A stretch of DNA of 64,000 nucleotides from NCBI GenBank assembly GCA_010093815.1, contig ML996582.1, one strand, 5' to 3'. The stretch's first letter is position 1; each line of letters starts with the position of its first letter. Both the position numbers and the translations under genes were made by a program. Of this stretch, positions 47,300 through 53,131 are shown piece by piece. Under the pieces are notes generated by a model. The model did not search any database, had not been told where the DNA came from, and saw only the letters and a program-made list of their open reading frames with translations. This stretch comes from Pseudovirgaria hyperparasitica. Its lineage: Eukaryota.

Positions 47300-49565
47300 A
47301 TGGCGGGCTCAGACATCCCAATTCCCCGCAAACTGTGGGAGCATCCGAATCCCAAGGGCACAAAGATGTATAAGTTCATGCAGAATGTGAATCAAAGACG
47401 AAATCTGACTCTCAACGTAAGCTCACGTGTTTTTGCTTAACCATCTAATATGTACTCACCCATATGAATCTTCCCGTTCTCCAGATGAGACGACGCCATC
47501 TCAACAATCGTTATAATCTCACATCCATCAAAGCTGATGTATGCAGAGTTTCAATGATTTGTACTCCTATTCTATCAAGAATCGTGCTTCATTTTGGCAG
47601 GATGTATGGGAGCTTCTTCCTCTGGTACATGAGGGCACGTATACAAAAGTAGTCGACGAGTCGGCTCCCATGGACACCATCCCATACTGGTTTGAAGGTA
47701 CACGCCTCAACTTCGCCGAGAATATCCTATACAATGCCGGATCCGACCACTCGCAGCTCTCAACGAGAGGCAAGGAAGATTCAAAGATTGCATGTACCGA
47801 AGTCCGTGAAGGGGGAACTGAGCTTCGAGATGTTACCTGGGCAGATTTGCGGAAGAGGGTTGGACGCCTGAGCAATGCTCTAAGGGCAAAGGGAGTCAAA
47901 AAAGGAGACAGGATATGTGTCGTGGCGAGTAACTCGGTCGACACTCTGGTCGTATTCTTGGCTACCACAGCCCTGGGTGGTCTATTCAGCAGCTCGAGTA
48001 CTGACATGGGAACTAATGGTATACTCGACCGCCTGTTACAAGTCACGCCAAAGTATGTCTTCATCGACGACTGGACAGTCTACAATGGGAAGACCATCGA
48101 CCTGCGCCCCAAAATGAAGGAGATAGTCGAAGGTATGCAGGGTGTGGAGAACTTTGAGGGCATCATCAGCCAGCCTCGATTCCGGCAGCCAGCAGATATT
48201 GCCTCTGTACCTCAAACGACCACCCTGGAAACCTTCCTGGCTGCCGCTCAAGATAATACTGAACTCACCTTCGAGCGCGTGGCTTTTCGCGACCCCTTTA
48301 TGATCGTCTATTCGTCAGGCACTACCGGCATGCCCAAATGCATCGTCCACTCCGTCGGAGGCGTCCTTCTCAGCTCCCTCAAAGAAGGCCAACTGCACTA
48401 CTCTTATGGCCCGGATACTGTCAAACTCCAATTCACCACCACCGGCTGGATCATGTATCTCTCCGCCGTCGGCTCACTCCTGCACTCCGTCCGCCTCGTC
48501 CTGTATGACGGCTCCCCATTCCAGCCCGATCTCAAGACCTTCATCACCCTCGTCGGCTCCCAACGCGTCACCCACCTCGGCATCTCCCCTCGCTACATGG
48601 CCGAGCTACAAAAAGCCAGCATCGTCCCACGTACCACAACCGATCTCTCCAACCTCCGCCTCGTTACATCCACCGGCATGGTCCTCAGCGACGCTCTCTT
48701 TGAATGGTTCTACGACACCGCCTTCCCGCGCCACGTTCATCTCTGCAATATATCTGGTGGCACCGACCTCGCGGGCTGCTTCGGTATCGGTAACCCCCTG
48801 ACTCCAGTCTACGTCGGGGGCACACAGGGCCCAACACTGGGTCTGCAGGTAGAGGTATACGACCAGACGATCCCGACCGGCAAACGCGGTACCGCGGTCG
48901 AGGATGGAGTGCCAGGTGAGCTCGTCGCGACGACTGCTTTTCCAAACCAGCCAACCACGTTCTGGGGCCAGGGTGGGCACGAGAAGTATCTGAGTAGCTA
49001 CTTCCAGCGTTATCCGCAAGTGTGGGCGCATGGTGATTTCATCGTCAAGCATCCCCAGACGGGCAGTATTACCTTTCTAGGCAGGGCGGACGGAGTGTTG
49101 AATCCGAGTGGGGTGCGGTTTGGGAGTGCGGAGATATACAGCGTGATCGAAGAGCATTTTCCGCAGATTCAGGATAGTATCTGTGTTGGACAGCGGCGGC
49201 CGAGTGATAACGACGAGAGCGTAATGCTGTTTCTGTTGATGCAGCCCGGGCAGAGATTCAGCGAGGAGTTGGTCAGGGAGGTCAAGGTGAAGATTGGAAG
49301 CGAGCGGAGTAAGAGGCATGTGCCAAAGTGGGTGTTTGAGACGCCTGCGATTCCAGTGAGTGGTGTTCACTGAAGCTATAGGGACGTGCGCTGACACTGT
49401 GTGCAGACGACGGTCAATCTCAAGAAAGTCGAGTTGCCCGTCAAGCAGATTGTGTCAGGGCAAATAATCAAGCCTTCTGGGACACTATTAAACCCAGATA
49501 GTCTAAAGTACTATTACCAATTCGCGAAGGTCGAGCAGCTAGGTGCGCCCAAGAGCAAACTATAG
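47300..49565 (+). CDS. Acetoacetyl-CoA synthetase (AMP-binding family) with C-terminal SKL; introns 47417-47546, 49356-49406
   Basis: RKLWEHP, LNFAENIL, YSSGTTGMPKCIVH, FTTTGWIMY, SGGTD, WAHGD, GRADGVLNPSGVRFGSAEIY, NLKKVELPVK. Confidence 0.94.
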
Positions 49566-49779
49566 CCCAAGCCAGCAGCTCGCGCAGGACAGTATAGCAA
49601 TGAACTCTAATATCAGACACCAAAGACACTCCAATACCATCTAAAACATATCTCCTCTCTTCTCACCATCTCTCTACACACCAGCAAAAGATCTCTACCA
49701 CTCAACAGCCCTCCAACGAGCTCAAAAACACCAAAATCCACCAAACCCCAAAAAATGACCAAAAATACAAAACTGTAAC

Positions 49780-49902
49780 CCAATTAGCGAGTGTCGAACC
49801 CGGGGAATTAAAGACCCACACGAATTCACCCTGGGAATTGCACAGAAGCCGTCTAGAACCGCGCTTTTTGGGCAACAACGATAACCACTAGAGCATGGCC
49901 CC
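49780..49902 (-). ncRNA. Degenerate tRNA-like / Pol III unit
   Basis: A box TGCTCTAGTGG(TTA), T-arm CGGG-TTCGACA-CTCG, downstream T-runs; no convincing acceptor or anticodon stem. Confidence 0.35.
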
Positions 49903-50920
49903 GATGTGCGAAATCTATACCATTCGGGGAGACTATATCCAGTGGAAAATACAAACATAAGATGATTGTGGTGTGGAGGGAGGGAGGGAGAGACACGTGG
50001 TTTGCGAGGGACCGTGCGGTGCTGGTGAATAGGGTGAACAGTGTTGTGATGCAAGTGCTGATTGACGTCACGCGTGTTTCTGGCCGCGGTGGTTTTGGCA
50101 GAGCGGTGACTGGCCACTTCTGAGAGATTCGATGGCTGGATAGCTATCTCGAGTCTACTCTGACCTCGCAGCAGAGTCGGTCTACAGCTATACAGCTCTG
50201 GCATGCATAGACACGATTTACACAACATACAATACAGTCCGATTGCACCCACCCTACTTGCTTAGAATGTCACTCAGACGCGTACCTTTCAAGTTATATG
50301 TCCATCAAGCACATATACACAGCATGTCGTCATCGTTCAGTGACGTACACTGCGCTGGCTCACGCCTTTTAAGTTCCACCCTTTACAACTAACTAACTCC
50401 TATTCAAGGTGGAAAATATTCACCAACGGTCTAATAGCGCAGCGTCAGTTCTTGTACGGTAACACATCAAATTTGCGGTGAGTGGTTCCCGCGTGTTTAA
50501 CACCGCCTGGTTCAGGTAGCCGTATGATTTGCAGGTTCTGCGTTTGGTGCTTCGTATCCTAGGATTCTGCTCGTGTTGGCATTGTGTTTGTAATATCTAA
50601 TGCTTCGTGCAAGTCAGTAAGGACATGAACACGACTTTGGAAGAGGTCTGCAATGTTTGAACATATCACCAAACAATTATGCATGACACTACTTCTGGAG
50701 TGGAGAGAGCCTTATCTAACGCAAATCTCAAACACAATGAACATTCCTATAGATCTACGTGTGATGTTGTGAGTGAGGACCTCATACTTCCCGAGCTAGC
50801 ACAAGTTAAGAATACAAAAAGAAGAACACAGCACTTCCTTTCATCCATCGTACAGCCTTCAATCCCCCCCTCCAAAAAAACGCCAAGACATCCAAAAAAG
50901 TCAAGGAAAATCAAAAAAGA

Positions 50921-51047
50921 TCGGGCAACGATGGAATCGAACCACCAGCTATCGGGCTTCGCTCACGGCAGACGCCAGGTGCTCTAAGAGTTGGCTTTTG
51001 GCTATTCTTAAAGGCTGACCCGCTAACCCCCTAGACCATTGCGCCGA
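50921..51047 (-). tRNA. Non-canonical, probably intron-containing tRNA or tRNA-like gene; anticodon ambiguous (TTT, TTA or TAA)
   Basis: A box TGGTCTAGGGG, B box GGTTCGATTCC, T-stem GGTGG/CCATC, terminal stem TCGG(C)GCAA/TTGCCCGA, T6 terminator two bases downstream. Confidence 0.6.
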
Positions 51048-51597
51048 GGATGAAATACATATAGTTTGGGAAGGATATATATGGTGGAAAATTGAATCTT
51101 TTTTCTGGGAATGGGAGAGAGGATAGTTAAGGAGGAGTGAGGGTTTGGGAATGACGTGGAGTTGGTCTGTGCCGCTGCTACTGCTGTTGTTATTGTTGTT
51201 GTTGTTGTTGTTCACTTCACGTGGAGAGTGTGGTTACGCCATAAGGGCTGCTATGTGCGTCTTTTGGGTGGTTAGGTGAGAGCTGGTCGGCGGTTACTTG
51301 TAAATGGAAGAGCGCTTTCAGTGATCTGGTGTATCTAGATCCACAAAACTCGCCCGCCGGCACTCAGGTCAGAGCACATCAGTCTATCGGTGTTTACCCA
51401 CCCAGAGAAGAGAAGAGACAACGGGAGAATTTGTTGTATACAGAGATCATAAGCTCGAGGTTGCAAGACATCACTCAAGGTCTGTCATACTGACCAACAG
51501 TGATAGTAGGAACAGAAGAAAAGAGGGGCATTATCCCTCTGTACACAAAACTACATATAGCACTCTCCCCATCGTAACACCAGACACGACTCTCAGG

Positions 51598-53131
51598 TCA
51601 CTCCCTCCCCTGGATGATATATCGCCAAGAATTCTGCACCCACATCTCAAACTCACGATCCAAGAACTCTGGCTGCGGCGCCATGCCCCTCCACACGTTC
51701 TCCTCTGGTGCAACAACAAAGCGTGCGCCCAGCAGGTGCAATAGCGCCTGCTCACTGCGCGCCTCACGGGCGTTATACGTCGTGAATAGCGCCGGACAGC
51801 CGCTCTCAATGATCATTTTTATGGTATCTCTCCACGCAGTGTCCGCGTCGTCGCCGTCGACATGACCGCTGTTGAACGCGACGACGAGATCCGGCAGGGA
51901 ATAAGAGGTTGTGCTTGCAAAGTCGTGGTAGAGGCCCTTGTACGACGACAGCGAGCGCTGGCGGGACTGCGCGCGGCAGGTGTCGCAGCAAGGGAGGGCG
52001 CCCATTGGTTGGAAGCCAGATGTAGCGGCGTTGTTGAGCCATGCAGCGGGCCCGATGGCGGTGATTGATAGCGAGTTGAGTGCGGGGAGGAGATGTAGGA
52101 TTTCTTCGTAGGTGTTGATGGCAAGGAATTCGCGGCCTGTGGCGCCGAGGAGATGGATGCTTAGGGAGGTCTTTGTGGTCAGGGAGAGGTCTTCGAGCGC
52201 AGCGACGATGGTAAGGGGCATGGTTAGGTTGTCAGATGCTTGGATAAGAAACATGCGTCTGCGCTCCTCGAATTCGTGCTGCTCTGGAGAGAGATTGCAT
52301 GTAGCGGCTGTGAGTCTGCTGAAGTCAGGGGTGATGGAGTCCCTGATCTCGCCTTTGTCAGATATGTTTACGTAGTAGTCGTACCACCCGGAACATGTTT
52401 TCAATAATTTATGTGTGGTTCGAGGGGGTTCTGTACATGTTATCACAGAGGTATCTCCAACGTCTTCAAATAGGCTGATTCTGAACTGTTCTAGGTTGTA
52501 GAATGCTTTGTAGGCATCACACACAGATTGAGGGTGGGTAGCCTGGCACTTGTTGCACGATGAGACCAATCGGCAATCAGCACACGCATCCAAAGCGATA
52601 TCAAGCTGAGCTAGTTGTATGCCGCTCCGATGACAATTGATACAGTAAGGCTGACCTCTAGCTGGAAGTTAGATGGCTTGCATTCCCTGGTATGTATGAA
52701 GCCTTCGAGACATGACTGACTGGACAATGTTGTATGCATCAGCGTGGCCGGCAGCAGCAGAGACCTGGCGTACGATCTTCATCTTCGCACCTAAGCGTCA
52801 GTTTCGGCGGTAGCATATGTTAATGAGGTCGTACCTGGTCGTTGCTGTATTGCTCCCAGCTTCTTTTGTCTTGATAAAAGTCCAGCTCGCACTGATTGGC
52901 TTCTCTCAAAGGCTTACAAAGCTTCTTATGTAGATATGCCCAGTCGAGCTTCTGACATTCCTTGGAGCAGTAGCCTGCTCGCTTGCACCCTAAACATCTG
53001 TAGAGCTTTCCTGGAGGTGGACTGAAGCATCGGAAGCAAGTGAACCCTCTAACAGCACTCACAGGCAGTGCTGGGACACCGACGTGACCCGAGGCGACTA
53101 TCCGCTCGCGCTCTTTACATTTTATAGGCAT
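51598..53131 (-). CDS. MYND zinc-finger protein with MSS51/ZMYND15-like C-terminal domain; 2 introns (52834 to about 52783, 52720-52658)
   Basis: CFRC..CLGCKRAGYCSKECQKLDW..HKKLC; second Cys cluster; LTMPLTI, IHLLGA..E, YHDF..PDLVVAFNSG, FTTYN..E. Confidence 0.88.

Follow-up and report, generated by a model that had tools for sequence, protein, structure and literature searches.

Within the 64-kb window (the whole stretch of DNA analyzed, eukaryotic and of fungus-like character), two units resembling tRNA genes, hereafter E1 (approximately 51092-50874) and E2 (approximately 49950-49724), were located on the minus strand, 1143 nt apart, next to a pair of convergent protein-coding genes. The plus-strand gene (47300..49565) is acetoacetyl-CoA-synthetase-like, with AMP-binding and ACAS_N domains and introns at 47417-47546 and 49356-49406, and its product ends in SKL, a tripeptide of the peroxisomal-targeting type. 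The minus-strand gene (51267..53000) carries an MSS51_C domain and two short introns (52658-52720 and 52783-52834). Four sequencing runs covered the locus, two of which (X3 and X4) behave as RNA assemblies, showing four joints of the GT..AG / CT..AC type. The spliced contigs of the synthetase-like gene in these two runs reach position 50180 or 50248, approximately 615-680 nt beyond the stop codon, and cross E2, which lies antisense to the downstream, 3' untranslated part of this transcript. Those of the MSS51_C-domain gene start at 51267 (X3) or 51567 (X4), upstream of E1; since the contig ends of the two genes converge, E1 is placed between two gene 3' ends. Two low-depth pieces were also present in X3, one at 50414-50722 (depth 3.1) and one at 50966-51124 (depth 4.3), the latter comprising 77 nt upstream of E1 and its first 79 nt; both are contigs without strand or ends, so they allow no inference on the expression of E1. 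A (CAA)n/(CAG)n microsatellite (51173-51210, minus strand) lies between the 3' end of the MSS51-like gene and E1, and the contigs of one DNA run break there (skipped repeat, 51170-51219). On the minus strand, an ORF of 168 aa (49722-50228), annotated as protein-coding in the source assembly, spans E2. No Pfam family was detected in its product, which had no homologue but itself among 5.8 billion proteins, and the ORF is probably spurious.

The features that a preliminary description had listed for both elements, namely an A-box-like motif, GGTTCGA and T-runs, were all present on the minus strand. In E1, the most upstream of the conserved parts is the 9-mer ATTTTCCAC (51084..51092), identical in E2 and with the A-box T 54 nt downstream, followed by the TATA-like ATATATAT (51075..51082), which aligns to the ATATA of E2 and lies approximately 20-27 nt 5' of the putative start. 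The A-box-like TGGTCTAGGGGG occupies 51027..51038, and TGGTCTAGGGGGTTA begins at 51038. Both belong to a tRNA-like body (50922..51044), called by ARAGORN with the -ps option only, that in its canonical reading contains a 53-nt insert (50959..51011) after position 37, the canonical place of tRNA introns, unrelated to the interior of E2. The B box, GGTTCGATTCC (50933..50943, with GGTTCGA at 50943-50937), is a full match to the consensus GGTTCGANTCC, and downstream a cluster of T-runs (T6, T4, T6 and T7; 50874..50918) was found, whose first T6 (50918-50913) starts 4 nt past the discriminator position and 25 nt past the first B-box base. A run of seven G (50862-50868, minus strand) lies just past the last of these T-runs.

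The same arrangement was found in E2, where the 9-mer ATTTTCCAC (49942..49950) has the A-box T 55 nt downstream and the TATA-like ATATA is at 49934..49938. The A-box-like TGCTCTAGTGG (49895-49885) lies inside the E2 body (49773..49901), TGCTCTAGTGGTTA beginning at 49895, and in the alignment with E1 a GCC (49873-49871) and an unrelated interior (49870-49801) come next. The B box is reduced to the core GGTTCGA (49794..49800), followed by CACT, the 3' part of the consensus being lost, and the T-run cluster (T4, T5, T6, T4 and T5; 49724..49772) includes a T4 at 28 nt and a T5 at 35 nt past the first B-box base. A (CCCT)n tract (49975-49990, minus strand) is situated just 5' of this unit. The A boxes of E1 and E2 show two departures each from the consensus TRGCNNAGTGG. 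The T content of the 100-nt tails ranked at the 99.0th (E1) and 99.8th (E2) percentiles of the window. No significant sequence likeness was found between the two tails (local score 21); because 449 of 2000 shuffles reached this score, composition is what they have in common, and not sequence.

In order to evaluate whether the pair could be due to chance, a composite pattern (A-like motif, 20-140 nt, GGTTC[GA]A, 5-60 nt, TTTT) was searched in the 64-kb window, where it matched E1 and E2 only. Dinucleotide shuffling of the window (200 replicates) gave 0.035 matches on average, with at least one match in seven shuffles and at least two in none (0/200). GGTTCGA by itself was not enriched, with 8 occurrences in the window vs. 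7.15 expected. These statistics, together with the shared upstream block described below, bear out the earlier view that the pair is not coincidental. The same description had pointed to an internal GCC(C)AAAA(A)GC in both elements, and this string is indeed present in the two units and nowhere else in the window; its significance did not stand, since 29 of 200 shuffles gave at least two matches, and its recurrence is probably due to chance. The string lies 36 nt from the A-box T in E1 and 22 nt in E2, and a single shared 6-mer accounts for the recurrence.

A homologous block of 72 nt, whose first base precedes the A box by 54-55 nt, is common to E1 and E2, and comprises in this order ATTTTCCAC, the TATA-like ATATA, ATTTC and TCGGnGCnATGnTCTAGnGG..TTA. 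The local alignment of the two units, from ATTTTCCAC to TTAnCG, had a score of 33, reached by 1 of 1000 dinucleotide shuffles and by 0 of 972 real pieces of the window, and a global alignment slightly longer than the 72-nt block placed GCC in register (51015-51013 vs. 49873-49871). Judged from these alignments, E1 and E2 are paralogous copies, a relationship that the preliminary description had overlooked. Conservation between them is mosaic: identity was 30/46 in the upstream part and 17/25 in the 5' part (together 47/71) vs. 22/79 in the interior (Fisher p = 3.5e-6). The dissimilarity of the spacers, noted before, was corroborated, as the 22 identities over 79 ungapped positions compare with a background of 19.7 ± 4.0, and their local alignment score was 12 vs. 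a shuffle mean of 12.2 (15 vs. 12.6 for the reverse complement). The two interiors span 70 and 71 nt between GCC and the B box. The spacing of 95 nt previously given for both elements, counted between the A-box T and the first base of GGTTCGA, was found in E1 (51038/50943) and in E2 (49895/49800); the exact equality arises from two 1-nt differences that compensate, given that the alignment offset is 1142 for the upstream block and GCC, and 1143 for the A box and the B box. Repeat-induced point mutation was considered and rejected, the substitutions between E1 and E2 being 12 transitions and 21 transversions. No inverted repeats pointing to a transposon were found at the locus. Regarding SINE-type features, there are two copies in 64 kb, the T-run is directly 3' of the tRNA-like part, and no flanking direct repeat of at least 14 nt was detected.

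Both units have the parts of a type-2 Pol III gene, i.e. an internal A box and B box at a tolerated spacing, and terminator-like clusters of T-runs. The preliminary description had called the spacing non-canonical, which was not upheld: a T8-to-B-box distance of 95 nt leaves approximately 83 nt between the boxes in E1 and E2, inside the range of 31-93 nt reported for yeast tRNA genes, in which TFIIIC adapts by a flexible linker (PMC5356446). Elsewhere, yeast tRNA start sites are placed 17-19 bp before box A and the TFIIIB footprint 10-40 bp upstream of the start (PMC5052057). By these yeast distances, the predicted starts would fall at approximately 51055-51057 in E1 and 49912-49914 in E2, and the predicted TFIIIB footprint of either unit would coincide with its conserved block of ATTTTCCAC and TATA. 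On this analogy, the conserved blocks of E1 and E2 coincide with the places of TFIIIB, start site and box A in yeast (PMC5052057). Given that the conserved parts are type-2 promoter DNA elements and that the core is not conserved, E1 and E2 would represent Pol III units derived from tRNA genes, and not structured RNAs.

The capacity of the two units to specify a tRNA was evaluated with gene finders and by inspection of the stems. ARAGORN at default settings, with and without introns, detected 0 tRNA genes in the 64-kb window, and the Rfam search yielded 0 matches at the gathering score; relaxing the cutoff to E ≤ 10 brought up no tRNA match in 49500-51300. The only Rfam match at E ≤ 10, to sR33, was a chance C/D box on the plus strand (16 bits vs. 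a gathering score of 37) and was discarded. In E1, the acceptor stem (51044-51038/50929-50923) forms 6 of 7 pairs, with a single C-C mismatch, the T stem (50946-50942/50934-50930) forms 5 of 5 around TTCGATT, and an anticodon-type stem (51022-51018/50957-50953, CGGGT with GCCCG) also forms 5 of 5 and encloses CAGCCT, 53 nt and A, with GCC (51015-51013) in the position of the anticodon. A D stem is lacking, the canonical reading has A33 and T37, and the D region measures 15-16 nt vs. the usual 17-21 nt. ARAGORN called E1 at the relaxed threshold (-ps) only; removal of the 53 nt gave a 70-nt tRNA-Gly(gcc), again called at the relaxed threshold only, the spliced form being rejected by default. 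When single-deletion variants of E1 were generated, 93 of 4225 were called by ARAGORN default, 68 of them as Gly(gcc), all 68 combining a D-region deletion with the use of a second GCC, which lies in a CTGCCGT loop. The 53 nt (51011-50959) fit the intron site at 37/38, while ARAGORN default prefers an insert in the D region and the second GCC loop, and the existence of this second reading makes the tRNA identity and the core of E1 ambiguous. What ARAGORN really recognizes in E1 is a good acceptor/T-arm minihelix. The 5' end of E1 presumably resembles fungal tRNA-Gly(GCC) genes, and the assignment to Gly-GCC leans partly on that resemblance.

At the places equivalent to those of E1, the stems of E2 form 1 of 7 (acceptor), 2 of 5 (anticodon-type) and 4 of 5 pairs (T stem), again with no D stem. 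E2 received no ARAGORN call at any threshold, nor did any of its in-silico deletion variants (0/4875). A cloverleaf with a 7-bp acceptor, a D stem, an anticodon stem with U33 and a T arm was formed by neither unit. Whole-element folds showed no extra stability with respect to shuffles (z = 0.20 and 0.15 for E1 and E2, respectively), the interiors showed no excess of structure (z = +0.9 and +1.2), and no RNA structure common to E1 and E2 was found. The question raised in the preliminary description, whether the elements score as ordinary intron-containing tRNAs, was therefore answered in the negative by the 0 genes of ARAGORN default, the relaxed-only call of E1, the lack of a tRNA match in Rfam and the 0/4875 of E2. 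Its suggestion of diverged long-intron tRNAs was sustained in part, as to the origin of E1, in whose canonical reading 53 nt lie exactly at 37/38 between the strands of a perfect 5-bp stem, but not as to present identity, since neither unit scores as an ordinary intron tRNA.

Taken together, these results suggest, with a probability of roughly 0.55, that E1 and E2 are a pair of tRNA-gene relics that have retained a complete Pol III promoter architecture; they look like such relics, and not like a new class of RNA. The ancestral gene was probably a tRNA of the Gly-GCC type. One tRNA gene would have given rise to two paralogues in which the type-2 DNA architecture was kept while a normal tRNA was no longer specified. 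In the predicted course of factor binding and transcription, TFIIIC would engage the B and A boxes and then set TFIIIB on the conserved upstream block, and Pol III would start approximately 17-19 nt before the A box and stop in the T-runs, producing RNAs of approximately 135-150 nt. The RNA from E1 might still form the acceptor/T-arm minihelix and the anticodon-type stem around the 53-nt insert, and that from E2 would be unable to form an acceptor stem.

An alternative, which we regard as rather unlikely, is that both units are silent, functionless tRNA pseudogenes, neither bound nor transcribed, and that the 5' block is left from a small duplication or from an old partial gene conversion. The poor acceptor (1/7) and anticodon-type (2/5) stems of E2 agree with this explanation, as do the rejection of both units by tRNA callers at default thresholds and the failure to find related units elsewhere in the metagenome pattern scan and at the loci of synthetase relatives. 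The RNA-derived contigs of the opposite gene that cross E2 favor it as well: they suggest that Pol II passes through E2 (the contigs being strandless and the transcripts perhaps merged) and, since in yeast Pol II read-through was reported at no tRNA gene (PMC5052057), E2 may not be stably occupied. Uniform neutral decay, however, does not predict the contrast between promoter (47/71) and interior (22/79) identity (p = 3.5e-6), nor does it predict a B-box core at an equal 95 nt and clusters of T-runs in both units, and the 12 transitions and 21 transversions give no sign of repeat-induced point mutation. The mosaic conservation and the equal geometry could also be read as signs of selection, in the sense that E1 and E2 belong to a family of functional Pol III units, specific to the lineage, in which the promoter cassette and the geometry are selected and the transcribed core is free, serving as TFIIIC/TFIIIB-bound boundaries between convergent genes or as carriers of variable small RNAs; an ncRNA family and TFIIIC-bound boundaries had also been suggested in the preliminary description. 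In support of this reading, which we deem improbable, the GCC-to-B-box interiors have stayed at 70 and 71 nt although their sequence diverged to background, E1 sits where the 3' ends of two convergent genes face each other, and yeast TFIIIB and TFIIIC can block Pol II (PMC5052057). Against it, just two members are known, with 0 matches in the metagenome pattern scan, the interiors show no excess of structure (z = +0.9 and +1.2), and the contig crossing E2 speaks against a strong block there. In its most specific form, and just as doubtfully, a fungal lineage would keep a family of tRNA-Gly-derived cassettes, each with a TFIIIB site made of ATTTTCCAC and TATA, A and B boxes at an invariant distance of 95 nt, a multi-T terminator and an interchangeable core of approximately 70 nt. 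If this were true, selection would act on factor binding and geometry and not on RNA fold, for example in partitioning convergent genes or in delivering variable small RNAs.

It appears very unlikely that E1 functions as a tRNA-Gly(GCC) gene interrupted by a canonical intron of 53 nt, with E2 perhaps a tRNA too. The acceptor, T and anticodon-type stems of E1 are nearly intact, the insert can be placed at 37/38 and the terminator-like run begins 4 nt past the discriminator position, and recent intron gain has been described in yeast tRNA-Gly genes (PMC4090602). These features are outweighed by the lack of a D stem, a D region of 15-16 nt (vs. the usual 17-21 nt), A33 and the C-C mismatch in the acceptor, by the rejection of E1 and of spliced E1 by ARAGORN default and the absence of an Rfam match at E ≤ 10, and, for E2, by 0 calls among 4875 deletion variants. 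Another cause altogether, i.e. a coincidental pair of motifs, or constraint from the 168-aa minus-strand ORF (49722-50228), is hardly credible: this ORF does span E2 and was called a protein in the source assembly, yet it has no Pfam family or homologue, approximately two such stop-to-stop ORFs are expected per 64 kb by our own estimate, the strand of E1 has no comparable ORF, and the shuffle statistics oppose coincidence.

For the favored reading of E1 and E2 as relics with Pol III promoter architecture, the nearest precedent is found in Saccharomyces cerevisiae, where ZOD1 and iYGR033C are described as ancient relics of tRNA-Ile and tRNA-Arg genes occupied by the Pol III machinery, ZOD1 being weakly transcribed (PMC5356446). 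Like them, E1 and E2 would descend from tRNA genes that lost the tRNA fold but retained their Pol III promoter elements (PMC5356446), and by analogy may be regarded as weakly active or poised relics. Unlike them, E1 and E2 are two paralogues 1.14 kb apart, with a conserved upstream TATA block and unrelated interiors of equal length, and are known from sequence alone. With intron-containing eukaryotic tRNA genes they share the A box, the B box and the T-run, a spacing in the yeast range and, in the canonical reading of E1, the insert at 37/38 (PMC5356446; PMC4090602), and differ from them in having no D stem, in the A33 of E1, in the missing acceptor and anticodon stems of E2 and in the lack of a default call. 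E1 and E2 are also candidate TFIIIC sites in intergenic DNA near gene ends, in this respect resembling ETC or TFIIIC-only sites; those are occupied by TFIIIC only (PMC5356446), and an ETC-type site has a B box but no functional A box, start site or terminator. E1 and E2, with their additional A-box-like and TATA-like motifs and T-run terminators, have the look of complete genes instead. Finally, E2 is a tRNA-type unit antisense to a Pol II transcript, as is the antisense MIR in mammalian Polr3e (PMC5358760). The latter is an intronic SINE with demonstrated occupancy, whereas E2 is located in the 3' untranslated portion of a transcript and has been characterized at the sequence level only.

If the promoter blocks were selected while the core drifts, the locus would offer a clean natural case, outside budding yeast, of a tRNA gene turned into a Pol III element that is not a tRNA, and its position at a convergent junction would make the effect on neighboring Pol II transcripts directly measurable. 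If both units were simply decaying, they would be ordinary tRNA pseudogenes, of a kind that default tRNA finders miss and motif scans over-call.

In addition to the two units, further members and relatives were searched for. A metagenome pattern scan, in which the 5' motif common to the two units was combined with GGTTCGA, returned no match. At 80 loci with relatives of the synthetase, 18 of them fungus-like at 54-67% identity, no E-like unit, tRNA or MSS51-like neighbor was found, these loci being too distant to judge conservation. A scan for promoters and terminators of bacterial type returned 0 sites and is irrelevant to the eukaryotic DNA analyzed here. A literature search on tRNA-like Pol III units in Pezizomycotina surfaced only a general tRNA review, and one on upstream TATA elements of filamentous-fungal tRNA genes found nothing relevant. 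A third copy of the upstream 9-mer, ATTTTCCAC(C) (50417-50409, minus strand), is located about halfway from E1 to E2, on the strand that carries both; as a further unit it was rejected, since the likeness stops after 17 nt and neither an A box nor a B box nor a T-run follows. Overall, the 9-mer occurred 3 times in the window vs. 0.53 expected, with all copies inside 1.15 kb.
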